Positions 5,105 to 30,816 of a DNA stretch of 33,498 bases are shown in pieces. Both the position numbers and the translations under genes were made by a program. The notes below the pieces were generated by a model. That model saw only the letters and a list, made by a program, of their open reading frames with translations, was not told the DNA's origin and searched no databases. Source of the stretch: Myxococcota bacterium (lineage in GTDB: Bacteria; Myxococcota_A; Polyangia; Polyangiales; Sandaracinaceae); assembly GCA_036149055.1 (NCBI GenBank), contig JAYZQJ010000061.1:1-33498 (forward strand). Reading direction: 5' to 3'. The stretch's first letter is position 1, and the number at the start of each line of letters is the position of its first letter.

Positions 5105-5923
5105 ATGGGGACAGGGAAAGCCCCGTCAGCGGCGTCCGGGCGGTCGGGCGTGTATGCTCGCGGCCTCTTGCGGGTCTCCGGCGGACAGCGCCCTGTCGCC
5201 CTGATCGCGTGCGCGTCCTTGCTCTCGGCGTGCACGGACGGCGACGCCCTGCGCGTGTTCGCCGCCGCGTCGGTCGGCCAGGCGATGGAGGAGGCGGGCG
5301 AGGCCTGGACCGCGCGGAGCGGCGTGGAGGTCCGGGTGACCGCGGCCGGCAGCCAGGTGCTGAGGCGGCAGATCGAGGCCGGCGCCCCCGCCGACGTCTA
5401 CGCCCCGGCGAGCTTCGCGCACCTCGAGGGCGCGGTCTCCGAGCGGCTCGAGGCGCCGGCGCTGCTCGGCTGCAACCACCCGGTGGTGGTGGCCCGACCG
5501 GGCTCGTCGGTGCGCGCGCTCTCCAGCCTCGACCGGGCCGAGCGCATCGTGCTCGGCGCGCCCGAGGCCCCGATCGGCGCCTACGCCGACGCGATCCTCG
5601 CGCGGGCCACCGAGCGCTACGGCGAGGCCTGGCGCCGGCGCGTGGACCGGCGCGTGGTCTCCCGCGAGATCGACGTGCGGCAGGTGCTGACGAAGGTCCA
5701 GCTCGGCGAGGCCGACGCGGCCATCGTCTACGCGAGCGACGCGGCCGGATCCCCCCTGCGGGTGGCGCGCATCCCCGACGGGCTCGAGGTGGAGGCCCGC
5801 TACCCGGTCGCGGTGGTCGCCGACGCGCCGGCCGAGGCGCGAGACTTCGCGCGCTGGCTCCGAGAGGACGGCTTCGCGCACCTCGAGCGCCACGGCTGGA
5901 CCCGCTGCGAGGCCGCCCCGTGA
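5105..5923 (+). CDS. modA: Molybdate ABC transporter substrate-binding lipoprotein (start uncertain, 5105-5168)
   Basis: Lipobox LSAC, VFAAAS, GSQVLRRQIEAGAPADVY, PIGAYA, GEADAAIVYASDA; first gene before modB/modC. Confidence 0.88.
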   Translation: MGTGKAPSAASGRSGVYARGLLRVSGGQRPVALIACASLLSACTDGDALRVFAAASVGQAMEEAGEAWTARSGVEVRVTAAGSQVLRRQIEAGAPADVYAPASFAHLEGAVSERLEAPALLGCNHPVVVARPGSSVRALSSLDRAERIVLGAPEAPIGAYADAILARATERYGEAWRRRVDRRVVSREIDVRQVLTKVQLGEADAAIVYASDAAGSPLRVARIPDGLEVEARYPVAVVADAPAEARDFARWLREDGFAHLERHGWTRCEAAP

Positions 5924-6711
5924 CCGACGCGCTGCGCATCGCCGCGAAGGCGCTCGGCTTCGCCCTCGTCCTCTTCCTGCTGCTGCCCTTCGTGGCGCTC
6001 GCGCTCACGCTGTCGGCGGGGGACTACACGGCGGCGGTGGACCGCGGGCTCTGGGAGGCGCTCTTGCTGAGCCTCGGGAGCACGACGATCGCGGCCGCGG
6101 TGCTGGTGCTGAGCGGGACGCCGCTCGCCTGGTGGCTCGCGCGGCGGAGCGGCTGGCTCGCGCGCCGGATCGAGGGCCTCGTCCGCCTCCCCGCGGTGAC
6201 GCCGCCGGCGGTGGCGGGCGTCGCGCTCCTCGCCGCGTTCGGGCGCGCCGGGCTCTTCGGCGAGGCGCTGAGCGAGGCGGGGATCGGCATCCCCTTCACC
6301 CTGGCCGCCGTGGTGCTCGCCCAGCTGTTCGTGGCCGCGCCGTTCTTCGTGCTCCCGGTCGCCGACGCCTTCCGCGAGGTCGACGACGAGCTCCTCTGGA
6401 CGGCCCGGAGCCTCGGCACCGGGCCGGCGGCCGTGTTCTTCCGGGTGGTGCTCCCGATGAGCGCGCCGACCTTCGTCGGCGGCCTCGCGATGGCCTGGGC
6501 GCGAGCCCTGGGCGAGTTCGGGGCGACGCTGGTGTTCGCCGGCAACCTCCCCGGCGTCACCCAGACCCTGCCGATCGCGATCTACACCGAGATGGAGGGC
6601 GACCTCGGCCCGGCGCGGGTGATGGCACTCGTCCTGCTCGGCTTCGCGCTCCTGCTCTTCGCCGCCCTGCGCACCGCGCGCGTGGAGCGCGTCCTGGGGA
6701 AGAGGACCTGA
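5920..6711 (+). CDS. modB: Molybdate ABC transporter permease
   Basis: GTGA overlap with modA; LPAVTPPAVAGVALL, ARSLG, WARALGEFGAT, TQTLPIAIY; multiple TM segments. Confidence 0.9.
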   Translation: MTDALRIAAKALGFALVLFLLLPFVALALTLSAGDYTAAVDRGLWEALLLSLGSTTIAAAVLVLSGTPLAWWLARRSGWLARRIEGLVRLPAVTPPAVAGVALLAAFGRAGLFGEALSEAGIGIPFTLAAVVLAQLFVAAPFFVLPVADAFREVDDELLWTARSLGTGPAAVFFRVVLPMSAPTFVGGLAMAWARALGEFGATLVFAGNLPGVTQTLPIAIYTEMEGDLGPARVMALVLLGFALLLFAALRTARVERVLGKRT

Positions 6712-7469
6712 TGCTCGAGGCGCGCGTGACGGTCCGCCAGGGCGAGTTCCTGCTGGAGGCTGAGCTCACCTGCCGCGGCACGACGGTGGTGATGGGCCCG
6801 AACGGCGCCGGCAAGTCCACCCTGCTGCGCGCCCTGCTCGGCGCGGTGCGCCCCGAGGCCGGCCGGATCGTCTACGGCCGCGAGATCCTCTTCGACGACG
6901 CGCGCGCCATCGACAAGCCCCCCGAGGAGCGCGGCATCGCCTACGTGCCCCAGGGCTACGGCCTCTTCCCCCACCTCGACGTGCTCGACAACGTCATGTT
7001 CGGCATCCGGCGCGGCCGCCGCCAGGAGCGCATCGTGCACGCGCTGTCGATCCTCGAGGACCTGGAGGTCCGAGAGCTCGCCCGCCGCCGCCCCTCGGAG
7101 CTGAGCGGCGGCGAGCAGCAGCGCGTCGCCCTCGCCCGCGCGGTCGCCTCGTCGCCCCGCGTGCTCCTCCTCGACGAGCCGCTCAGCGCGCTCGACCAGG
7201 CGGCCCGCCCCCGCGTCCGCCGCTTCCTCGCCGACTGGCTCCGCGGCACCCGCCTTCGCACGGTGCTGGTGACGCACGACGCGAGCGACGCCCGGGAGCT
7301 CGCCGACGAGCTGGTCGTGCTCGAGGGTGGCCAAGTCGTCCAGCGAGGCACCCCCGACGCCATCGCCTTCCGCCCCACGACCGAGTTCGTGGCCGCCCTC
7401 ACCGCCGGCCTGATCGAGCGAGACCACCGCTCGGTGCCCCCTCCCGGGATGCTCACCGAAGACGAGTAG
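6711..7469 (+). CDS. modC: Molybdate ABC transporter ATP-binding protein
   Basis: TGATG overlap with modB; Walker A GPNGAGKS, LSGGEQQRVALARA, LLLDEPLSALD, VTHD. Confidence 0.88.
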   Translation: MLEARVTVRQGEFLLEAELTCRGTTVVMGPNGAGKSTLLRALLGAVRPEAGRIVYGREILFDDARAIDKPPEERGIAYVPQGYGLFPHLDVLDNVMFGIRRGRRQERIVHALSILEDLEVRELARRRPSELSGGEQQRVALARAVASSPRVLLLDEPLSALDQAARPRVRRFLADWLRGTRLRTVLVTHDASDARELADELVVLEGGQVVQRGTPDAIAFRPTTEFVAALTAGLIERDHRSVPPPGMLTEDE

Positions 7470-7536
7470 TCCGGGAACCTTCGCGGAGCGGCGCTGTCCG
7501 ACGGCGGTCGGCCGTCGGGTCGGCGGAAGGAGCGAC

Positions 7537-7797
7537 ATGCGGGTTCTCTCTCTGTTCATCGGCCTCCTCGCCCTCGGCGGGCTGGCCTCGCCGGCGGCGG
7601 CGCAGGACGACGTCGAGTGCCACGAGGTCCGCCCGGGGCAGATCCAGTGCGGCACCCAGACGATCTACGGGCGGCGGCACGGCCCGCAGGGGGCGCTGCT
7701 GATCCCGCGCGCCCGCGAGCGCTACGAGGCGCCGCCGCTGGTGCGCCGCGATTTGCCGCGCGAGGTGCGCCGGTCGGTGCGCCGCACGCCGTTCTGA
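7537..7797 (+). CDS. Small secreted protein, CglF/GltF-like
   Basis: RBS AAGGAG; signal peptide ending AAA-Q; TIYGR..P.G...I.R...Y..L.R..L..EV..SV...PF pattern recalls myxobacterial CglF/GltF-like proteins (family call from memory). Confidence 0.6.
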   Translation: MRVLSLFIGLLALGGLASPAAAQDDVECHEVRPGQIQCGTQTIYGRRHGPQGALLIPRARERYEAPPLVRRDLPREVRRSVRRTPF

Positions 7798-7819
7798 TCT
7801 CTCCGTGCTACACGAGGGC

Positions 7820-8362
7820 GTGAGCTCGTACGACGCCCTCCGCGAGAAAGTCGACGCCTTCGCCCACGCGGTGAGCGCGCGCCGCGAGGACGTGGTCTGC
7901 CGGGCCGGGTGCAGCGGGTGCTGTCACGCCAAGCTCTCGCTCTGCGACGTCGAGGCCGACGCGCTCGCCGACGCGGTGCGCGCGCTCCCGGCGGAGGCGC
8001 GCCAGGCGCTGACCGCGCAGCTCGAGCGGCCCGACGACGATCGCTGCGCCCTGCTCGACGACGACGGGCGCTGCGCCGCCTACGCAGGTCGCCCGCTCGT
8101 GTGCCGCACCCAGGGGCTCCCGCTCCGTTATCCCGCGGGGACCGTGCCGGTCGACGCGGTGCGGGCCTCGGCGGGCGGGGACGTCACCTGGTGCCCCCTC
8201 AACTTCGAGGACACGCCACCGGAGGCGCACGACGTGCTCGACGCCGAGCGGGTCGATCTGATGCTCGCGCTGATCAACCGCGACCATTCCGCCACACCGA
8301 CCCGGCGGACGTCGATCGCGACGATCGTGCGTCGAGCGCTCGCGGGCGAACATCGCGATTGA
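7820..8362 (+). CDS. YkgJ-family (CxxCxxCC) cysteine-cluster protein
   Basis: CRAGCSGCC, CALLDDDGRCAAYAGRPLVCR, WCPLNF. Confidence 0.85.
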   Translation: MSSYDALREKVDAFAHAVSARREDVVCRAGCSGCCHAKLSLCDVEADALADAVRALPAEARQALTAQLERPDDDRCALLDDDGRCAAYAGRPLVCRTQGLPLRYPAGTVPVDAVRASAGGDVTWCPLNFEDTPPEAHDVLDAERVDLMLALINRDHSATPTRRTSIATIVRRALAGEHRD

Positions 8363-8407
8363 AGCCTTCGCGCGGACCGTGCTTCAATCCCGACTCCCCA
8401 GAGGCTC

Positions 8408-9619
<1,212 letters not shown>

Positions 9620-9620
9620 C

Positions 9621-10508
9621 ATGTCCGGCGTGGTGCTGATCGCCGAGGGCGATCCTTTCAATCTCCGCCTGCTCGAGGAGCTCTGCGAGGAGGCGGGCTT
9701 CGACGTGGTCACCGCCGACAGCGGCGAGACCGCGCTCAACGTGGTGGCGCGACAGCGCCCCGGCCTGATCGTGCTCGACGCGGGCCTGCGGAGCGACGAC
9801 GGCGCGGAGGTGCTCGAGGTCCTGCAGTCCGACGCGACGCTCGCCTCGATCCCCGTGCTGCTGACCACCGGCGCCGACGACGAGGAGAGCCGCAAGCGCG
9901 GCCTCGAGCTCGGCGCGTCCGACTTCGTCGCGCGGCCGTACCGGGTGTACGAGGTCGAGCAGCGCATCAAGAACCTGCTGCGGCTCGCCGAGGCCGAGCG
10001 GGCCGCCGAGCGCGCGCGCAGCTCGCTGACGAGCGATCCCGCGCTCGACAAGGACCCGATCACGCACGCGGGCGGGCCCGGTCAGCTCCGGATCAGCCTG
10101 GAGTACGAGGCCACCCGCGCGGTCCGGTACCGCCACTCGCTGACCTGCCTCGTGCTCCGCGTGCACAACTTCGACGCGATCGTGGCGGCGAGCGGCGAGG
10201 GCACGGGCCACGGCCTGCTCGTCCAGCTGGCCAACGGCCTCCGCATCGCGATCCGCGCCATCGACCACCTCTTCCGGAGCGACACCGACGAGTTCACGCT
10301 GCTGCTGCCGGAGACGGACGCGAGCGAGGCTCGGGTGGTGATCGATCGCCTCCGCGGTCAGGTGGCCGACGGGAGCCTCGTCGGCCCCGCGATCGAGCCG
10401 TCGCCGGAGCTCGGCCTGGGGCAGGCGTCGATCGTGCCGGAGGGACCGATCACCGACGGGGAGCGGCTCTGGCAGGCGGCGCGCGAGGGGATCCTCCCGC
10501 TGGCCTGA
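9621..10508 (+). CDS. Receiver domain plus degenerate GGDEF-domain protein
   Basis: REC ([21 protein letters not shown]); GGDEF-like fold with [15 protein letters not shown] replacing RYGGEEF; starts 1 nt after the EBP stop. Confidence 0.8.
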
Positions 10509-10516
10509 CGTCGCGA

Positions 10517-10558
10517 TCGACAAGGCCGCGGCGGAGGCCTACCCTGAGCTTCAGGAGG
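10517..10558 (+). promoter_or_regulatory. Putative sigma70-type promoter and RBS of the Pup-like/PafA operon
   Basis: TCGACA (10517-10522)-N17-TACCCT (10540-10545); AGGAGG at 10553-10558, 8 nt before GTG. Confidence 0.6.
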
Positions 10559-10566
10559 AAACCCTC

Positions 10567-10746
10567 GTGACCACCTCGAACGCGCTCGTCGACACCCTCT
10601 CTCCGACCCCCGCCGATCCGAGCGAGAGCCCGGAGCGTCCGCTCGAGACCCGACTCGGGGAGGCGCTCGGCCGCATCGCCGAAGACGCCCGCGACGCCGC
10701 CGAGCGCTACGCGCGCGACACCGAGGTCCCCGAGGGCGGCGAGTAA
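10567..10746 (+). CDS. Pup/UBact-like small modifier protein (59 aa, C-terminal GGE), absent from the ORF track
   Basis: MTTSNALVDTLSPTPADPSESPERPLETRLGEALGRIAEDARDAAERYARDTEVPEGGE*; perfect SD; acidic, disorder-prone; 13 nt upstream of a PafA-family gene. Confidence 0.85.
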   Translation: MTTSNALVDTLSPTPADPSESPERPLETRLGEALGRIAEDARDAAERYARDTEVPEGGE

Positions 10747-10759
10747 CGCCGCGCGGGCG

Positions 10760-12505
10760 ATGCGTCGCGTCGCCGGGATCGAGCAAGAGTACGCGATCCG
10801 CTACTCCCCGGTCGGCGGGGAGGGACGGCCGAGCCATCGGCGCGTGTTCCTGGCCTTCCTCCGCACGCTGTCGGAGGAGCTGCAGCCGGGGATCGTCGCC
10901 GAGGAGCGCCTCGACGAGCTGGAGGCGGCCCCGACGCCGGGCATGGGCGCCTTCGTCCTGAACGGCGGGCGCGTCTACTACGAGGCCCTGTCGAAGGCGC
11001 CCGACGGCGGGCTCATCGAGCTCGCGACGCCCGAGTGCCGGGGCGCCAACCAGCTGCTGGTCTACGAGCGCGCGCAAGACGCGCTGCTGCGCCGGGCGCT
11101 GCCCGGGATGCGCCGCCGGCTCGCGCGGGCCGGCTATCCGGGCGAGCTGGATCTCCTGAAGAACTGTCGCGACGCGGCCGGGCACGTGTACGGCACCCAG
11201 GAGAACGTCGAGGTGGAGGTGGCCCGGGGGCCGGCGCTGCTCGCCTACCGCGCGCTCGCCGCGCTGCTGCTCCCCTGGCCGATCGCGCTCACCCTCGCGC
11301 TCTGGGCGATCCTGATCTCGGTCGCGCTGGTCGTCTGCGGGCTGCTCCTCGCGCTCGGCCTCGTCTACGTGACGATCGCGCTGGGGCTCGGGGCGCTGGG
11401 GCTCGCCGGCGTCCGCGCCCGGCGCGCCTGGAGCCTCCTGGATCGCGCGCTGGCCTGGCCCGACCGGCACCTCGGCGTGACGCTGCGCGGGCGCGATCAT
11501 CGCGGCGCGGTCCTGCTCCACCGCTTCGACCACGCGATGTCCTACGCCTTCGCGACGCCGCACCTCGTGCTCGCGCGGCTCTTCCTCTTCGGCCGGGTGC
11601 GGCGCGACCTCGGCGGCCTGCTCGCCTCGCGGGTGGTGCTCTCGGGCGCGGGCGTGCGGCGGGACGACGGCGGCTTCGGTCTGTCGGAGAAGGCCGACGC
11701 GATCGGGGCGCTGCAGCGCTGGCACCTCGGGACGGCGCGCGCGATCCTCGATCCCGTCGAGAGCTACCGCGCGACCCAGGGCCTCGTCGCGCTCCGGGTG
11801 CGGCAGGTGGGGCGGCTCTTCGCGCGGCGGCAGCGGCTGCAGCTCGGGTGCTCGGACGCGAGCCTCGCCGAGGTCGGCGGCCTGCTGAAGATCGGCACCC
11901 TCCTCGAGGCCCTCGCGCTCTCGGACGACGGCGCGCTCGCCGATCTCCCCCGCCCGCGCGATCCGGTCGCCGCGCTCCGCGCGTTCAGCGCCGACCCGAG
12001 CCTCACCGCGCGCGTGCCGATGAGCGACGGCGCGCCGCGCACCGCGCTCGAGATCCAGCGGCTCTACCTCGAGCGCGCCGAGGCCGCCGGGGGCGCGGTC
12101 GATCCCGAGCGCCTCGAGATCCTCCGGCTGTGGCGCGAGTCCCTCGACGCCCTCGAGCGGGACCCGCGCAGCCTGTTCGGGCGCATCGACTGGGTGACCA
12201 AGCGCGAGCTGATCGCGCGGTGCGCGGACGACGACGCCTCGGCCACCAAGGTGGCCCTCCGGTACGCCGAGCTCGAGGGCGGCTACTTTCGCGCGCTCGA
12301 GCGAGACGGGCTCACCGATCGCGTGCTCGACGACGCCGAGATCGAGCGCGCGGTCACCGAGGCCCCGAGCGACACCCGGGCCTTCGCCCGCGCCCGGCTG
12401 GTGCGACGCCTCGCGCGCGAGGGCGGCCCTCGCGAGATCGGCTGGGATCGCGTCCGGGTCGGCCCCCGCTTCCGGGGGAAGGTCATCTTCCTCTTCGGGG
12501 AGTGA
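10760..12505 (+). CDS. PafA/Dop-family (Pup ligase-like) protein with transmembrane insertion
   Basis: RRVAGIEQEY (GhExE), NGGRVY, ELATPEC, LLKNCRDAAGHVYGTQEN, LASRVVLSGAG, LSEKADAI, RLQLGCSD..LKIGT, IDWVTK, DTRA occur in PafA order; ~60-aa hydrophobic stretch inserted. Confidence 0.88.
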   Translation: MRRVAGIEQEYAIRYSPVGGEGRPSHRRVFLAFLRTLSEELQPGIVAEERLDELEAAPTPGMGAFVLNGGRVYYEALSKAPDGGLIELATPECRGANQLLVYERAQDALLRRALPGMRRRLARAGYPGELDLLKNCRDAAGHVYGTQENVEVEVARGPALLAYRALAALLLPWPIALTLALWAILISVALVVCGLLLALGLVYVTIALGLGALGLAGVRARRAWSLLDRALAWPDRHLGVTLRGRDHRGAVLLHRFDHAMSYAFATPHLVLARLFLFGRVRRDLGGLLASRVVLSGAGVRRDDGGFGLSEKADAIGALQRWHLGTARAILDPVESYRATQGLVALRVRQVGRLFARRQRLQLGCSDASLAEVGGLLKIGTLLEALALSDDGALADLPRPRDPVAALRAFSADPSLTARVPMSDGAPRTALEIQRLYLERAEAAGGAVDPERLEILRLWRESLDALERDPRSLFGRIDWVTKRELIARCADDDASATKVALRYAELEGGYFRALERDGLTDRVLDDAEIERAVTEAPSDTRAFARARLVRRLAREGGPREIGWDRVRVGPRFRGKVIFLFGE

Positions 12506-12512
12506 CCGCGGC

Positions 12513-14582
12513 TCAGGGGCAGGAGCGGCCCCAGGACTCGAGGCGCGCGCGGACCTCGCCGATGGCGGGGTGATCGGGGACGAGGCGGCAGAAGCGCTGG
12601 TAGTCCCGGATGGCTTGTTGACGCTCACCCGCCGCGTCGTAGCAGTCGCCCCGGCGACGGAGCGCGATGGCCGGGGCGCCGCCGCGGATGGCCTCGTCGA
12701 GGATCCGCACGCAGCGCTGGGCGTCGCCGCCGCGCATCGCGCTTCGAGCCTGTCGCAGCGCCTCCGTCGGGGTGAGCGGGCCGGGCGCCGCCTCCTCGCG
12801 CGGCGGGCTCGGGGCGCGGCGCTCGCCGAAGCCGGGGAGGAAGTCACCGGGATCCGACGTCTCGGCGGGCGCGCGCTCCTCCGGCGCGTCGGCCTCGGTC
12901 GTCGGCGCGGCGCGGCGCTCCTCGCGCGGCTCGGCGCGAGCCCGACGGGCGCGACGCGGCGTGGGCTCGGGCTCCTCCTCCGCCTCCGGCGCAGGCTCCT
13001 CCGTGGTCGGCTCGGGGAGCTCGGCGCCCTCGACCGGCGCCTCCTCCGGGACGACCTCGACCGGCGCCTCTTCCTCCGGCGTCTCCTCCACCGCCGTCTC
13101 GGCCGGCGGCGGCTCCTCCTGGGAGCGCTCGTAGAAGTAGAGCCCGGCGATCACGAGGCCGGCGCTCGCCGCGCCCGCGAGCAGCGCGCCGAGCACGAGC
13201 AGCCAGCGCCCGCCCTTCTTGGGGATCGCGCTCGCGGGGATCGGCGTGCCGTCCCAGCCGGAGCTCGAGACGGCCGGCGCCGACGGGATCGACGCGCGCT
13301 GCGAGGCGTCCATCATCTCCGTCTGCGCGACCCGTCGCTTGGGCGCGGGCGGCTCGGGGAAGGACTCGACCTCGAACGGGGTCTCGCGGGTGGCCGGCAT
13401 CGCGCGGCCCTCTTCCGGGGAGCGCGTGTCGGGGATCTTCGGCTTGGCGGGCAGCGCGGGGCCCGGCGCCGGCGGCACGGGAGCCCCGGCGACCGCGCCC
13501 ATCGCCGCGGTGGCCCCGTAGGCCAGCTCGCTGCGATCGGGCGCCGGCGTCAGGCCGCTGAACGTCCCGATCGGCAGCTTGCCGCCCTCGTCGGGCGCGG
13601 GCGGAGGGTTCGTCGCCGGCACGCCGGCGTCGGGCGGCGGCACGCTGGCCACCTTCATGCCGCCGAACGCCTGGGTCGCGAGCCCTCGGCGCTGCTCCGA
13701 GCGGACCGCGGACACGCCCCCGACCGCGTCGATGTAGGCCTCGGCGAGCTGCATCGCGGTGTCGTGACGCGCGGTGCGGGTGCGGGACATCGCGCGCATC
13801 ACCACCGCCTCGACCGCCTCGGGCACGTCCGGGCGCGCCGAGCGCAGCGGCACCACCTGGGCGTTGAGGATCGCGATGATGAGATCGGTCGGCGTCGAGG
13901 TCAGGAACGGCGGCCGGCCGGCGAGCGCCTCGTAGAGGATCACCCCCAGCGCGTAGACGTCGACCCGCCCGTCGACGTCGGGCTCGGCGCCGAGCTGCTC
14001 GGGGCTCATGTACCGCGGCGTGCCCAGGATCTCGCCCGTCTGGGTGAGCTTCTCGCTCCCGTAGACCTTGGAGATCCCGAAGTCGAGCAGCTTGACCTGC
14101 ACCCCGTGCGCGGTGGGACAGAGGAAGATGTTGTCGGGCTTGAGATCGCGGTGGACGATGCCCCGCGCGTGCGCCGCGTGGAGCCCGGCGCAGGTGCCGG
14201 CGACGATCGGCGCGAGCTCGGTGGGGTCGAGCGGGCCCCGCCGCATGCGCGATCCGAGCGTCTCCCCCTCGAGCAGCTCCATGATCACGAAGACCGCGCC
14301 GTCGTCGAGCTCGCCCCAGGACTCGACCGAGACGATGGCCGGGTTGTCGAGCTCGCTGAGGACCTGGCCCTCGCGCTTGGTGCGCTCCACCGCCTCCGGC
14401 TTGGCGGCCACGTCGGCGTGCAGGACCTTCACCGCGACGCGACGGCCGCTCTCGGTGTCCTCGGCCGCGAAGACCTCGGCCATGCCGCCCTCGCCGAGCT
14501 TCTCCTCGAGCCGGTAGCGCCCTGCCACGAGCGTGCCCGGCGCGAGGGCCCGCGCTGCGCGTCTCCGCGCCGCCCGTGTCAC
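12513..14582 (-). CDS. Membrane Ser/Thr protein kinase with C-terminal TPR-like domain
   Basis: LGEGGMAEV, VAVK, HRDLKPDN, DFG, GTPRYMSPE, DVYALG; Pro-rich linker; TM WLLVLGALLAGAASAGLVIAGLYFY; TPR-like ALRRRGDCYDAAGERQQAIRDYQRF. Confidence 0.92.
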   Translation of the reverse strand: MTRAARRRAARALAPGTLVAGRYRLEEKLGEGGMAEVFAAEDTESGRRVAVKVLHADVAAKPEAVERTKREGQVLSELDNPAIVSVESWGELDDGAVFVIMELLEGETLGSRMRRGPLDPTELAPIVAGTCAGLHAAHARGIVHRDLKPDNIFLCPTAHGVQVKLLDFGISKVYGSEKLTQTGEILGTPRYMSPEQLGAEPDVDGRVDVYALGVILYEALAGRPPFLTSTPTDLIIAILNAQVVPLRSARPDVPEAVEAVVMRAMSRTRTARHDTAMQLAEAYIDAVGGVSAVRSEQRRGLATQAFGGMKVASVPPPDAGVPATNPPPAPDEGGKLPIGTFSGLTPAPDRSELAYGATAAMGAVAGAPVPPAPGPALPAKPKIPDTRSPEEGRAMPATRETPFEVESFPEPPAPKRRVAQTEMMDASQRASIPSAPAVSSSGWDGTPIPASAIPKKGGRWLLVLGALLAGAASAGLVIAGLYFYERSQEEPPPAETAVEETPEEEAPVEVVPEEAPVEGAELPEPTTEEPAPEAEEEPEPTPRRARRARAEPREERRAAPTTEADAPEERAPAETSDPGDFLPGFGERRAPSPPREEAAPGPLTPTEALRQARSAMRGGDAQRCVRILDEAIRGGAPAIALRRRGDCYDAAGERQQAIRDYQRFCRLVPDHPAIGEVRARLESWGRSCP

Positions 14583-17690: not shown

Positions 17691-17703
17691 GGCCGCGAGT
17701 AGA

Positions 17704-17718
17704 GCAGGCACCGTGCCA
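17704..17718 (-). promoter_or_regulatory. Putative sigma54 -24/-12 promoter for the vWA gene
   Basis: Minus strand TGGCAC-GGTGC-CTGC (GG-N10-GC). Confidence 0.6.
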
Positions 17719-27788: not shown

Positions 27789-28427
27789 TTGGGACGCAAG
27801 CGCAAACGCAAGCGCGAGGGACGTCGCGTCGGCACCCGGGTGGTGACGCTGACGACGCATCGGCTCGAGCTCGCGCGGGGTCACGACGGCCCGCTCCGCG
27901 GGCTGCCCGAGCCCTGCCTCGTGCTCGGCGTGTTCGGCGTGACCGAGCGCGGCGCGTCGCTGTCCGAGCGGTCCGTCCTGCGGCTGCAGAGCGTCGCGCC
28001 CCACCCCGAGGTGATCGAGCACGAGCTGCGCCTCGAGGCGCGCATTCCGCGGCGCGAGGATCTGTCGATCGTCGTGCTCGCGTTCGCGGTGGAGGACGAC
28101 GGAGGCGACGCGCTCGCCCACCTGTACCAGGCGCTCTCGACGCCCGAGCGGCTCTCCTTCTGGCGGGCCTCCGAGCGCGACCCGGATCCGGCCACGCTCG
28201 CCGAGTGGTGCGCGCGGCCTCCGCTCCCGCCGCCGGCCACCGAGACCGTGCACGCGCTCGACGGCGACGCCGACCTGCGCGACGCGAAGCTGGGCGACGA
28301 CTACGTCGGCTGCGCGCTGTTCCACCTCACGGGCGAGAAGCAGCCGACCTTCGAGCGCCGGCTGCGCTTCGTGAGCGCCGACGAGCGGAACGACTGGACG
28401 CTCGTCCTCTCTCTTCGCGTGGTGTGA
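27789..28427 (+). CDS. Hypothetical protein
   Basis: Fills the gap between co-directional genes with GC3-biased codons; TTG start uncertain. Confidence 0.6.
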   Translation: MGRKRKRKREGRRVGTRVVTLTTHRLELARGHDGPLRGLPEPCLVLGVFGVTERGASLSERSVLRLQSVAPHPEVIEHELRLEARIPRREDLSIVVLAFAVEDDGGDALAHLYQALSTPERLSFWRASERDPDPATLAEWCARPPLPPPATETVHALDGDADLRDAKLGDDYVGCALFHLTGEKQPTFERRLRFVSADERNDWTLVLSLRVV

Positions 28428-28446
28428 CTTGCGGTAACGTGCGCGG

Positions 28447-29535
28447 GTGCGCGCCGCGTGCCTCCTCGCGTTCCTGCTGACCGCCTGCGCGCGGGAGGCC
28501 CCGCCTCGCGCCCCGACCGAGGCGCCGGCCGCCTCCGCGCCTGCGGCGCCCGCGCGCGGCGAGCCCGCCCCCGCCTGGCCGGCCTCGCTGCGGGTCGGCG
28601 AGCGCGACGCGCCGACCCTCTACCGCGGCAGCCGCGCGGGCGCGACGGGCTACGCGTGGATCGCCCCGGGCGAGGCCCTCTCCCCGCGCGGCGCGGTGCG
28701 CCGAGGCCGGGTGCGCGCGGTGGTCGACGGCCCCCTCCGGCTGCGCGGCTGGACCCCGGTCGCGGGCCTCGAGGGCGTGGTGATCCGGCGCGGTCGGGTG
28801 GCGCCGACGCCGCTGTTCGTGGTCCCCGGCGACGTCGTCCGCCTGGTCACCGCCCGGGGCGAGCTCGCGGTGGTGCGCGGCGCGGCGCGCTTCGCCCACC
28901 CGGCGCACCCTCGCTCGGACGAGCTCGAGGGCCAGATCCCCCTCGCCCACCTCGGCGCCGCGACCTCGGGCGGCGGGCCCGCCGGCACCCCGGGGCGACC
29001 GATCCTCATCCACGCCCGGACTCCTCTCCTCGATCGTCCGGGCGGCGCCGCGGTGTGGGAGATCCCGGCCCTCGATCCGCCGCTCACCGCGACCGTGCTC
29101 CGGGAGACCGACGGCTGGCTCGGCGTCCGGCTCGGCATGGGCCCGCACCTGGTCGGCTGGATCCGCGCGCCCGGGTCCGCGCGCAAGAAGGACGCGGGGA
29201 CCGATCCCGAGGTGCTCGACCCGTGGGACCGGGATCGCCAAGGGCACGTGCAGCCCGCGGTCCAGGACCCATGGGCCCCCCGCGAGGAGGCGGAGCCCGA
29301 GGCGGCCGACTCGGATCTCCCGCCGCGCCTGCGCGACGCGGTGGTGCGCCCGGTCTGGCAGGTCGCCCCCGGGACCCGCGTGGTGGTCGAGGGCGCGACC
29401 GTCGCGGTCTTCACCGCCCCGGGCCATGGAGTCGAGCTCGACCGCGACGGCGACCGGGTGGAGATCCTCGGCGCGGTCGACGACACCGCGACCGTACGCG
29501 GCTGGGTCCCCTCCGCCGCCCTCTCTCCCCGGTGA
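28447..29535 (+). CDS. Hypothetical lipoprotein with SH3-like beta repeats
   Basis: Lipobox LTAC; repeated ...(L/V)(R/V)GW(T/I/V) strand motifs. Confidence 0.7.
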   Translation: MRAACLLAFLLTACAREAPPRAPTEAPAASAPAAPARGEPAPAWPASLRVGERDAPTLYRGSRAGATGYAWIAPGEALSPRGAVRRGRVRAVVDGPLRLRGWTPVAGLEGVVIRRGRVAPTPLFVVPGDVVRLVTARGELAVVRGAARFAHPAHPRSDELEGQIPLAHLGAATSGGGPAGTPGRPILIHARTPLLDRPGGAAVWEIPALDPPLTATVLRETDGWLGVRLGMGPHLVGWIRAPGSARKKDAGTDPEVLDPWDRDRQGHVQPAVQDPWAPREEAEPEAADSDLPPRLRDAVVRPVWQVAPGTRVVVEGATVAVFTAPGHGVELDRDGDRVEILGAVDDTATVRGWVPSAALSPR

Positions 29536-29553
29536 CCTTCGGCGACGTTCGAT

Positions 29554-30052
29554 GCTCTCGCAAAGGCGCGAAGCCGCAAAGTCCAGGGAGGGGCGACGGG
29601 ATGGCGGCTGGCCGCCGGCTGCCTCAGTTCGTCTGCGAGCTTCGGGGACGACTATTATCTCTCGCAGAGACGCAGAGCCGCAGAGGGCAGCGGGGTGGCG
29701 GCTGGCCGGCGGTGGCCGAGGCTGCCGGGGCCGCGACCGCCTCCGTTCGTCTGGGGGGCTCCGGCGACAACTCATTTTCACGCAAAGACGCAAAGACGCA
29801 AAGTCCCCATGAGGGGCGACGGGGTGGCGGCCTGGCCGGCGGTGTCCCGACAGCCGGGGGCTCGGGCGACGAGCCGCCGGCGTTCGAGGAGCCGGCGGCG
29901 AGTCACCACCCCGCCGCCATCTCTGCGTCTCTGCGACTCTGCGAGAGACAAATTCGCGGGCCGACGAGCCGGCGGCGTTCGAGGAGCCGGCGGCGAGTCA
30001 CCACCCCACCGCCACGACCCGTCCCTTTGCGGCTTGGCGGCTTTGCGAGAGC
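29554..30052. repeat. Nested inverted/direct repeat array built on (CGCA[A/G]AGN)x3 motifs
   Basis: Motif copies 29554-29581, 29658-29685, 29778-29803 (forward) and 29921-29948, 30025-30052 (reverse); 53-bp direct repeat 29867-29919 / 29962-30014. Confidence 0.9.
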
Positions 30053-30080
30053 CCATTGCCCCGTACGAAGCGCCGCGCGC

Positions 30081-30704
30081 TCAGAAGTGAGAGAGGGTGA
30101 GGCCGAGCTGGGCGCCGCCGGGGGCGGGGAGCGCTTCGAAGGCGAGGGTCGGGGAGCGCTCGTCGTGGTCGTCGAGGGCGTAGACGGCGACGCGGACGGT
30201 GCGCTGGAGGGCGAGGCCGAGGATGAACATCGTCAGGCCGGCCGTCTGGAGGAGGCCGCCGACGATCGCGCCGACGGTCTCGTCTTCGTTGCCGGAGTAG
30301 CTGAGGGCCGCCCACGGGCCGATCACCGGGATCCACATCCAGGTGCGGTAGTCGGAGTCCCAGCCGAGCTGGCCGAAGGAGGCGGAGAGGCCCCAGCTGA
30401 CGCCGAAGATGATCATGCCCGGGATCCAGAGGCCCTTGATGCTGCTCGTACGCTCGACGTAGCGCACCTGCGGCTGCTGGTAGACGGGCTGCTGCTGGTA
30501 CTGCGGCTGCTGGTAGGGCTGCGCGTAGGGCTGCTGCGGCTGCTGGCCGTAGCCGGGGGGCGGCTGCCCGTAGCCCTGCTGCTGACCGTAGGGCTGGTAC
30601 TGCACCTGGCCCTGCACCGTGACGCTCTGGGCGCTGGCCTGGGCGCCGAAGCCGAGCAGGGCGAGCGCCGCCGCGAGGGGCGCGGTGAATCGAAGCATCT
30701 TCAT
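30081..30704 (-). CDS. Secreted/membrane protein with Gln/Tyr/Pro-rich N-terminus
   Basis: RBS GGAGG; signal peptide ending ASA-Q; QQPY repeats; hydrophobic core IPVIGPW; C-terminal GLTLSHF. Confidence 0.8.
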   Translation of the reverse strand: MKMLRFTAPLAAALALLGFGAQASAQSVTVQGQVQYQPYGQQQGYGQPPPGYGQQPQQPYAQPYQQPQYQQQPVYQQPQVRYVERTSSIKGLWIPGMIIFGVSWGLSASFGQLGWDSDYRTWMWIPVIGPWAALSYSGNEDETVGAIVGGLLQTAGLTMFILGLALQRTVRVAVYALDDHDERSPTLAFEALPAPGGAQLGLTLSHF

Positions 30705-30801
30705 CTGGTCCTCCCGGAGCCGCGGCCGCTCGGCCCCCGGCTCATTGTTCTCTCGTCGCGACCCGGGGCGCAAACCTCCGGGCGACGGCTGACAGCCCAC
30801 A

Positions 30802-30816
30802 GCAGGTTTGGTGCCA
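30802..30816 (-). promoter_or_regulatory. Putative sigma54 -24/-12 promoter
   Basis: Minus strand TGGCAC-CAAAC-CTGC, ~100 nt upstream of the 30704 start. Confidence 0.55.

Follow-up and report, generated by a model that had tools for sequence, protein, structure and literature searches.

Pupylation is, to our knowledge, the only ubiquitin-like tagging pathway known in bacteria, and it is understood almost wholly through the actinobacterial proteasome. What is the role of a Pup-like gene and a Pup-ligase-family gene that stand side by side in a myxobacterium in whose genome proteasome genes were not found? The pair lies on contig JAYZQJ010000061.1 (assembly GCA_036149055.1) of a Myxococcota bacterium of the family Sandaracinaceae, and the whole 33,498-nucleotide stretch analysed is referred to here as the window. 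It consists of a short open reading frame (ORF), called the tag gene below, and a gene for a ligase-family enzyme that carries a hydrophobic insertion. The initial annotation of this DNA had proposed a proteasome-free, self-contained tagging system probably acting on membrane proteins and possibly serving ends other than degradation. The computational checks that it had suggested all came out in its favour, and the pair is probably a self-contained, membrane-tethered system for Pup-type protein tagging and ligation.

A conserved small gene beside a Pup-ligase gene

The small ORF starts with GTG, ends with a TAA stop at 10744-10746 and encodes 59 residues with the C-terminus ...DAAERYARDTEVPEGGE; 13 nt separate its stop from the ATG of the ligase gene. 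This layout, a short ORF with an AGGAGG ribosome-binding site standing ahead of a PafA/Dop-type gene, had been pointed out in the initial annotation and can be read in the sequence as described. GC content at codon positions 1/2/3 is 0.78/0.58/0.92 in the small ORF, a coding-type profile with the same pattern as the ligase gene (0.80/0.51/0.96), in a window of 73% G+C. The encoded protein holds no lysine. Its N-terminal half is rich in Pro, Ser and Glu and varies among relatives, and its C-terminal part forms a conserved block, L..x..I..DAR.....Y(L/A)x(E/D)(T/S)xVPxGGE.

Relatives were collected by scanning one genome per species, which yielded 73 ligase loci. A small ORF ending in G[EQ] lies just upstream of the ligase in 69 of them, in at least four phyla, including the Myxococcota and Planctomycetota in which such ORFs had been expected. 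All three genomes of the same order that have a full-length ligase relative carry it, with the C-termini ...EYARDTEVPEGGE, ...RYARDTRVPEGGE and ...EYLRGTEVREGGE. Among the 71 small ORFs whose C-termini were listed, GGE is the ending in 70 and EGE in one, and 60 of the 71 lie no more than 50 nt from the ligase match. The tag is thus conserved across phyla at the protein level, with variable DNA and an end fixed at GGE-stop. In an alignment of 49 tags (A2; 48 of the 71, those with a clear start, plus the window tag), G58 and E59 never vary, and at least 90% of the members keep Y48, V54 and G57. Searched against 1.84 billion proteins, the A2 profile finds 838 cluster representatives at E <= 0.001; the 150 matches listed are 47-117 aa long and each extends to the last residue. 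Judged by these comparisons, the small ORF is far beyond what chance would produce. It also shows the functional features of a Pup, namely a length within 50-90 aa, a C-terminal G[EQ] and an adjoining PafA-family gene, and it resembles Pup in size, position, terminus and predicted binding mode.

Four of the 73 loci (numbered with the prefix L) yielded no intact tag ORF. One, L038, has no upstream DNA. In L050, from an Acidobacteriota metagenome-assembled genome (MAG), the tag ORF is frameshifted at 5700-6000, with ...EIEEDARRLK in one frame and RDRYLKETVVPEGGE in another, and this split tag reflects either an assembly indel or a decaying copy. The remaining two, L045 and L070, have no recognisable GGE-ending ORF within 900 nt upstream of the ligase; their tag may be located elsewhere in the genome or may have been lost. 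L045 carries a small hydrophobic ORF upstream of the ligase in place of the tag.

The second gene encodes a member of the Pup-ligase family. Pfam Pup_ligase (PF03136) is matched over profile positions 1-440 of 441 with a score of 232.2 bits (cut-off 25; E 1.6e-68), and this full-length match bears out the assignment made in the initial annotation. The N-terminus reads MRRVAGIEQEY and contains GxExE, which we take to be the nucleotide/metal motif of PafA and Dop. The best sequence matches in the PDB are Corynebacterium glutamicum PafA (4b0t; E 8.5e-26, in two stretches) and the Dop entries 9cku, 4b0r and 5lrt (one stretch each). The nearest protein in a collection of 5.8 billion sequences is 45% identical, and the NCBI family name is 'proteasome accessory factor PafA2 family protein'. 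An AlphaFold 2 (AF2) model built from 15 homologues (alignment A1) reached a mean predicted local distance difference test score (pLDDT) of 83.1 and a predicted template modelling score of 0.83. Its top Foldseek matches are the PafA-Pup structure 4bjr (E 3.6e-24; target template modelling score, TM, 0.72), Dop 4b0r (E 8.4e-24; target TM 0.79) and 9cku_G (target TM 0.83), with YbdK/GCS2 as a distant match (E 2e-3). The modelled fold is therefore that of a carboxylate-amine ligase (GS/GCS2-like), nearest to PafA and Dop. Across 120 homologues the GxExE residues are kept in 117 (G6), 115 (E8) and 116 (E10) cases; R137, D138, Y144, Q147, R291 and R359 are present in all 120, and E148 in 118. These counts indicate an active site under selection.

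The enzyme departs from PafA in one large feature. Between the strand at residues 146-153, which bears Q147 and E148, and the SGAG motif (295-298), PafA has a connection of about 25 residues; the window enzyme has a long insertion there, and its phmmer alignment to PafA is interrupted between query residues 175 and 358. The insertion is present in all 15 homologues of A1. In the AF2 model it forms helices at 158-169, 172-213, 219-231, 247-275 and 278-290, and pLDDT drops under 50 at 213-220 and 230-246. Kyte-Doolittle averages over 19 residues reach 1.6 or more for centres 174-211 (peak 2.99), and the resulting hydrophobic block of about 58 residues is flanked by R164 on one side and by R219, R221 and R222 on the other. 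A comparable block, with little sequence conservation, is found in 15 of the 15 aligned homologues, in keeping with the membrane anchor that the initial annotation had claimed. The block is long enough for a two-helix membrane hairpin, whose predicted topology would place both of its ends on the cytoplasmic side. Another, weaker hydrophobic segment at about 260-280 passes the threshold in only six of the 15 homologues and not in the window protein, so that two to four membrane segments are counted.

Structure prediction also joins the two products. Ligase (A1) and tag (A2) were co-folded with ATP and two Mg in three runs and three controls. The interaction prediction score from aligned errors (ipSAE) was 0.88, 0.87 and 0.88 in the three runs and 0.00 in all three controls; the runs share at least 78% of their contacts, with a partner pLDDT of at least 67. 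In calibration, 116 of 157 solved complexes attained the same mark, as did 2 of 215 mismatched pairs. On the tag side the interface comprises residues 26-59, which is the conserved block. On the ligase side it comprises helices 484-518, which belong to the C-terminal domain, together with residues 10-16, 75-85, 133-147, 327 and 363 of the active site; residues 10 and 12-16 touch the tag C-terminus, and residues 75-77 contact the tag. The prediction supports binding of the 34 C-terminal residues of the tag in the groove and active site of the ligase.

The genome (9.89 Mb in 289 contigs, 96% complete) holds one PF03136 gene, that of the window ligase. Its sole match to the Proteasome family is HslV, whose gene adjoins that of HslU. 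Nothing in the genome matches the bacterial 20S alpha model, and the Mpa/ARC model gives nothing above its 505-bit cut-off, with a best score of 201 bits. A Pfam scan of the window likewise detected no proteasome, ARC/Mpa or second PafA/Dop gene, so that the absence claimed in the initial annotation holds for the window, and the genome-wide search for prcA, prcB, arc and dop that it had called for found none. Four other carriers were searched: Plesiocystis pacifica SIR-1, Chondromyces apiculatus DSM 436, Paraliomyxa miuraensis and a complete Marinacidobacterales chromosome. With the window genome included, none of the five matches the 20S alpha model and each has a single Pup_ligase gene. Ten carrier genomes, complete chromosomes included, have zero to two Proteasome-family matches and never an adjacent pair; these are matches at family level, and HslV was assigned only in the window genome. 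The best match to the Mpa model lies at 10673-12103 of contig C230 of the window genome (G000; L083/L084), in a 763-aa frame with two AAA domains scoring 201 and 195 bits. This frame could be a Cdc48/VAT-type ATPase. In the search for an ATPase that might read the tag, it and the other AAA frames were set aside, all of them falling far below 505 bits.

The tag gene is covered by contigs from RNA libraries of two studies (matches of at least 95%), which run on into the ligase gene. Two contigs of one sample, 365 nt (10562-10926) and 430 nt (10559-10988) long, join the tag gene to the start of the ligase gene, and a metatranscriptome contig of 2288 nt covers 10300-11530. Three of the four RNA runs leave parts of the ligase gene uncovered, which carries no weight either way. 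Together these contigs are a weak hint of transcription of the pair. The two contigs of the one sample start at 10559 and 10562, between the AGGAGG and the GTG and 5-8 nt short of the latter, and their word depth is 10.6-13.6, against 3.0-3.5 in contigs upstream. This is only a hint of raised expression starting near 10559-10562, as contig ends are not transcript ends. The candidate promoter of the initial annotation was not recovered: a sigma-70 consensus scan of 7300-12800 returned no site, and no sigma-54 pattern with up to three mismatches occurs in the spacer before the tag gene (10509-10566). Across the window the sigma-54 pattern has 62 matches, compared with 69.9 expected from shuffles. 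One-mismatch -24/-12 matches of sigma-54 type, which may be due to chance, lie at 6623-6638 (+), 17703-17718 (-) and 30801-30816 (-).

How the pair would work and what else it might be

Read as a membrane-tethered tagging system, the pair would combine a disordered modifier with an anchored ligase. The 59-aa product would be an intrinsically disordered tag whose last 34 or so residues, the conserved part, bind in helical form to the groove in the C-terminal domain of the ligase and guide the terminal ...VPEGGE to the active site. There the ligase would use ATP to activate the side-chain carboxylate of the terminal Glu, and a lysine amine of a membrane-proximal protein would attack the activated Glu, joining the tag to its target. 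Since the tag is made with a terminal Glu, no Dop-type deamidation would be needed, which fits the presence of a single paralogue. The hydrophobic hairpin, a few residues after the active-site strand, would keep the catalytic cradle against the inner membrane on its cytoplasmic side, and such a position would make membrane or membrane-proximal proteins the likely targets. With no 20S proteasome or Mpa found in the genome, the tag would not be a proteasome signal; it would regulate its targets or pass them to another machine.

Several observations weigh against this reading. None of the 49 tags matches a curated Pfam or NCBIfam model at E <= 10. A profile search of PDB sequences returned no Pup chain; its matches, ribosome recycling factor and other helices hit by chance, all have E >= 0.26. 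For a direct comparison, the canonical PafA of L007 (see below) led to 80 metagenome loci and 26 distinct Pups ending in QKGG[QE], of which 23 were aligned (A3); as a positive control, two canonical Pups matched Pfam Pup at E 4.9e-26 and 6.1e-28. The hhalign comparison of A2 with A3 is marginal (E 0.012, probability 3.6%). Its alignment spans 31 colinear columns anchored at both C-termini, pairing Tyr with Phe and GGE with GGQ. The homology of tag and Pup asserted in the relevant passages of Iyer et al. (2008; PMC2588565) is neither borne out nor contradicted by this marginal sequence match. Six-frame genome searches with PF05639 and TIGR03687 did not touch the small ORF and found no Pup.

The remaining difficulties concern the enzyme and the means of study. 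The ligase scores 138.3 bits against NCBIfam Dop (TIGR03688, equivalog cut-off 492.3) and 136.6 bits against PafA (TIGR03686, cut-off 551.3), and because these scores are equal, sequence cannot tell ligase from hydrolase. Of 120 homologues, 119 have Glu at position 75 and one has Asp, so that the catalytic position stays acidic; the query 'vyyE' is paired with 'lylD' in PafA 4b0t and with 'lylN' in the 4bjr variant, and the His of the PafA 'HENY' is replaced by Gln in all 120. By alignment, these exchanges of the catalytic Asp and the HENY His are systematic departures from PafA. The co-fold may owe its pass to memory, because the PafA-Pup complex 4BJR is solved, and its own alignments and ATP/Mg lie outside the conditions of the calibration. 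The RNA-library contigs give neither strand nor ends, and DNA may occur in such libraries. The 96% completeness of the genome makes a missed proteasome locus unlikely, yet about 4% of it is unseen. Finally, no experimental study of a membrane-type system was found in the full-text literature, a coverage that leaves out most subscription journals.

The equal scores lead to the alternative that survives best, in which the enzyme binds the small protein without ligating it. It would then be a Dop-like amidase or hydrolase, or would form or cleave a gamma-glutamyl bond on some small molecule at the membrane, with the small protein serving as its regulator. Dop structures match the AF2 model as well as PafA does, the two active-site exchanges point the same way, and the superfamily includes small-molecule ligases such as those seen as distant Foldseek matches. 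A hydrolase on its own, however, would have nothing to remove where only one PF03136 gene is present, and a tag that ends in Glu leaves nothing to deamidate. In the phmmer comparison the N-terminal half aligns to PafA (30 bits), with no separate Dop stretch. A free C-terminal GGE, which a ligation substrate would need, is strictly conserved next to the enzyme (70 of 71 small ORFs). We regard this alternative as unlikely.

A bolder variant of the tagging reading changes the acceptor. Instead of a protein lysine, or besides it, the amine could belong to the head group of a membrane aminolipid such as phosphatidylethanolamine; a non-lysine acceptor is conceivable because the active-site strand enters the membrane hairpin within a few residues. 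If true, this would be a bacterial counterpart of the lipidation of Atg8 with phosphatidylethanolamine, with a disordered acidic peptide anchored to the inner leaflet. We regard it as a long shot. In a less radical version, the tag may mark membrane proteins for extraction by a membrane AAA+ protease, for example FtsH, by a route like endoplasmic-reticulum-associated degradation.

Ordinary degradative pupylation, with a proteasome and Mpa hidden in the unassembled part of the genome, would be compatible with an assembly of 289 contigs of which about 4% is unseen. It is very improbable, given that HslV beside HslU is the only proteasome-like match, that no 20S alpha and no Mpa above cut-off were detected, and that ten other carriers have no adjacent alpha/beta pair; the passages of Iyer et al. 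(2008) on these pairs likewise report no linkage to proteasome genes. Least credible of all is the idea that the small ORF opens by chance or forms an untranslated leader ahead of the ligase. Although it is shorter than usual gene-calling cut-offs and matches no curated family, its conservation as a protein across phyla, fixed GGE-stop, 838 profile representatives, GC3 of 0.92, strong Shine-Dalgarno sequence and specific co-fold (controls 0.00) leave that idea next to no room.

Spread and gene neighbourhood

By the taxonomy of the record titles, the 73 loci comprise 20 from Myxococcota and four labelled 'Deltaproteobacteria', 18 from Acidobacteriota and 17 from Planctomycetota. The rest are three from Spirochaetota (Leptospirales and similar), one Verrucomicrobiales MAG, three from unspecified Proteobacteria, two MAGs labelled Enterobacterales and five without a label. 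Within the order of the window organism, the distribution of the ligase is patchy. It was detected in five of 201 genomes searched, one of them (G192) by way of the canonical PafA contig L007, in none of 31 other members of the family, and not in the one other species of the genus. L007 is a 1879-base contig of a same-order MAG (G192:C145) on which the 3' end of a gene resembling a proteasome alpha subunit, recognised by eye, is followed by a canonical, insertion-free PafA; this PafA is 96% identical to that of the metagenome contig L089. L007 looks like an actinobacterial contaminant contig in the bin rather than a myxobacterial proteasome.

In the window, the pair closes a tightly spaced run on the plus strand that consists of an 86-aa ORF, a CxxCxxCC protein, a sigma-54 activator, a response regulator, the tag and the ligase (Table 1). 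These upstream genes have no counterparts beside other tag-ligase loci. A conserved third gene was sought by an all-against-all comparison of 2979 ORFs of at least 90 aa within 6 kb at 74 loci, and only the ligase proved universal (69 loci). The next clusters, found at 12-13 loci, reflect synteny local to Acidobacteriota and made up of housekeeping genes (class-III aminotransferase, chorismate synthase and NUDIX), and were rejected as partners. As no neighbour recurs, the functional unit is taken to be the two-gene pair. The Plesiocystis locus has a Bax-inhibitor-1 (BI-1) family membrane protein upstream and a PBP4-type carboxypeptidase downstream, and neither has a counterpart within 6 kb in the window or at the other loci of the 73.

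Table 1. Features of the tag-ligase locus and its upstream regulators, in window positions
Feature	Position	Strand	Basis or remark
Sigma-54 activator, 403 aa	8408-9619	+	Followed directly by the response regulator
Response regulator	9621-10508	+	Partial GGDEF match (profile positions 13-109 of 161); immediately 5' of the tag
Shine-Dalgarno-like AGGAGG	10553..10558	+	Sequence reading; 8 nt 5' of GTG
Pup-like tag gene	10567..10746	+	59 aa, C-terminus ...EVPEGGE; conserved ORF 5' of the ligase
Pup-ligase-family enzyme, predicted membrane-anchored, 581 aa	10760..12505	+	PF03136; sole member found in the genome
G-I-E-Q-E motif (G6, E8, E10) = GxExE	10775..10789	+	Conserved in homologues
Glu75, position of the PafA catalytic Asp	10982..10984	+	Alignment to PafA; 120 homologues
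Insertion, ~135 residues (155-290)	11222..11629	+	Alignment to PafA, A1, AF2
Continuous hydrophobic block, residues ~160-218	11237..11413	+	Kyte-Doolittle; Arg-flanked

Genes for Ser/Thr kinases lie within 6 kb of the ligase in the window and at 12 other loci of the 74. One stands directly downstream of the ligase in the window, where it is convergent (12513-14582, minus strand), and on the same strand as the ligase in L030 (7839-9161), L034 (2464-6726) and L057 (7665-9689). The kinases were rejected as partners of the system: their domain architectures and positions differ, and their presence is probably due to chance in kinase-rich genomes, an expectation estimated by judgement. Elsewhere in the window, two stretches of about 1.6 kb each (5923-7537 and 28427-30081) contain no ORF that passes the filter on GC content at third codon positions.

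Relation to known systems

A membrane-anchored, two-gene, proteasome-free version of pupylation would mean that the chemistry of Pup, as deduced here, has been re-used for something else. The pair is spread across at least four Gram-negative phyla, with 838 tag clusters in public data. It is small enough for reconstitution in Escherichia coli, so that its function is directly testable. Plesiocystis pacifica SIR-1, Chondromyces apiculatus DSM 436 and Paraliomyxa miuraensis SMH-27-4 are carriers that are presumably culturable.

Three known systems invite comparison. The actinobacterial Pup-proteasome system comprises Mpa/ARC, Dop, Pup, PrcB, PrcA and PafA. The window pair shares with it a PF03136 enzyme with the same fold and GxExE motif, and a tag of similar size that would be disordered, ends in GG[EQ] and is predicted to dock by a C-terminal helix and tail as in 4BJR. 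Unlike that system, it stands in a genome in which no 20S proteasome, Mpa or Dop was found; its ligase differs from PafA in the membrane insertion and in Glu for the catalytic Asp and Gln for the HENY His, and its tag, unlike the canonical Pups scored here, is missed by Pfam Pup. Corynebacterium performs pupylation without a 20S proteasome, by means of ARC, Dop, a soluble PafA and a canonical Pup ending in GGE. In agreement with this, the control genome of C. glutamicum matches Pup_ligase and has no match to Proteasome (PF00227) or 20S alpha. Its arc-dop-pup-pafA locus is thus akin to the window pair in having a tagging pair without a 20S proteasome and a GGE-ending tag, whereas no ARC, Dop or canonical Pup was found in the window genome and the window ligase is predicted to be inserted in the membrane. 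The UBact system, said to have been described by Lehmann et al. in 2017, is reportedly found at Gram-negative loci that also encode Dop, Mpa and subunits of the proteasome, and its tag ends in another motif. It is likewise a small Pup-like modifier outside Actinobacteria beside PafA/Dop-family genes; the 49 tags gave no match to a UBact-type NCBIfam family at E <= 10, in a library in which the presence of a UBact model is unconfirmed.

The closest precedent is the comparative-genomic study of Iyer, Burroughs and Aravind (2008, Biol Direct; PMC2588565), whose relevant passages describe Pup orthologues and PafA homologues in Plesiocystis and Rhodopirellula. Those passages present a Pup-ligase pair with a transmembrane insertion and without linkage to proteasome genes, and they propose regulatory pupylation of membrane-associated proteins. 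The initial annotation was therefore right to recall earlier predictions of such loci. The Plesiocystis locus was recovered here as L043, with a ligase 42% identical to that of the window and a tag ending in ...ETVVPEGGE. Like the pair in that account, the window pair has a small G[EQ]-ending protein, a single PafA-family gene, an insertion after core strand 4 and no proteasome linkage. Two points differ. The account gives four transmembrane segments, and the window enzyme has one block of about 58 residues with room for two helices; it also gives a linked membrane-protein gene, and none is conserved beside the window pair. The linked gene seems to be specific to the two genomes of 2008 and not a defining part of the system.

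The system is thus real and widespread, and in substance it was already predicted from sequence by Iyer et al. (2008), so that it is not new as a discovery. What is added here is incremental. The range of carriers now extends beyond those named in the passages of 2008 to Acidobacteriota, Leptospirales/Spirochaetales and Verrucomicrobiales, and the pair is found to have no conserved third gene. To this are added the Asp-to-Glu and His-to-Gln changes in the enzyme, a tag that is invisible to current Pup models, a specific predicted complex of the two proteins and weak RNA evidence for the pair.

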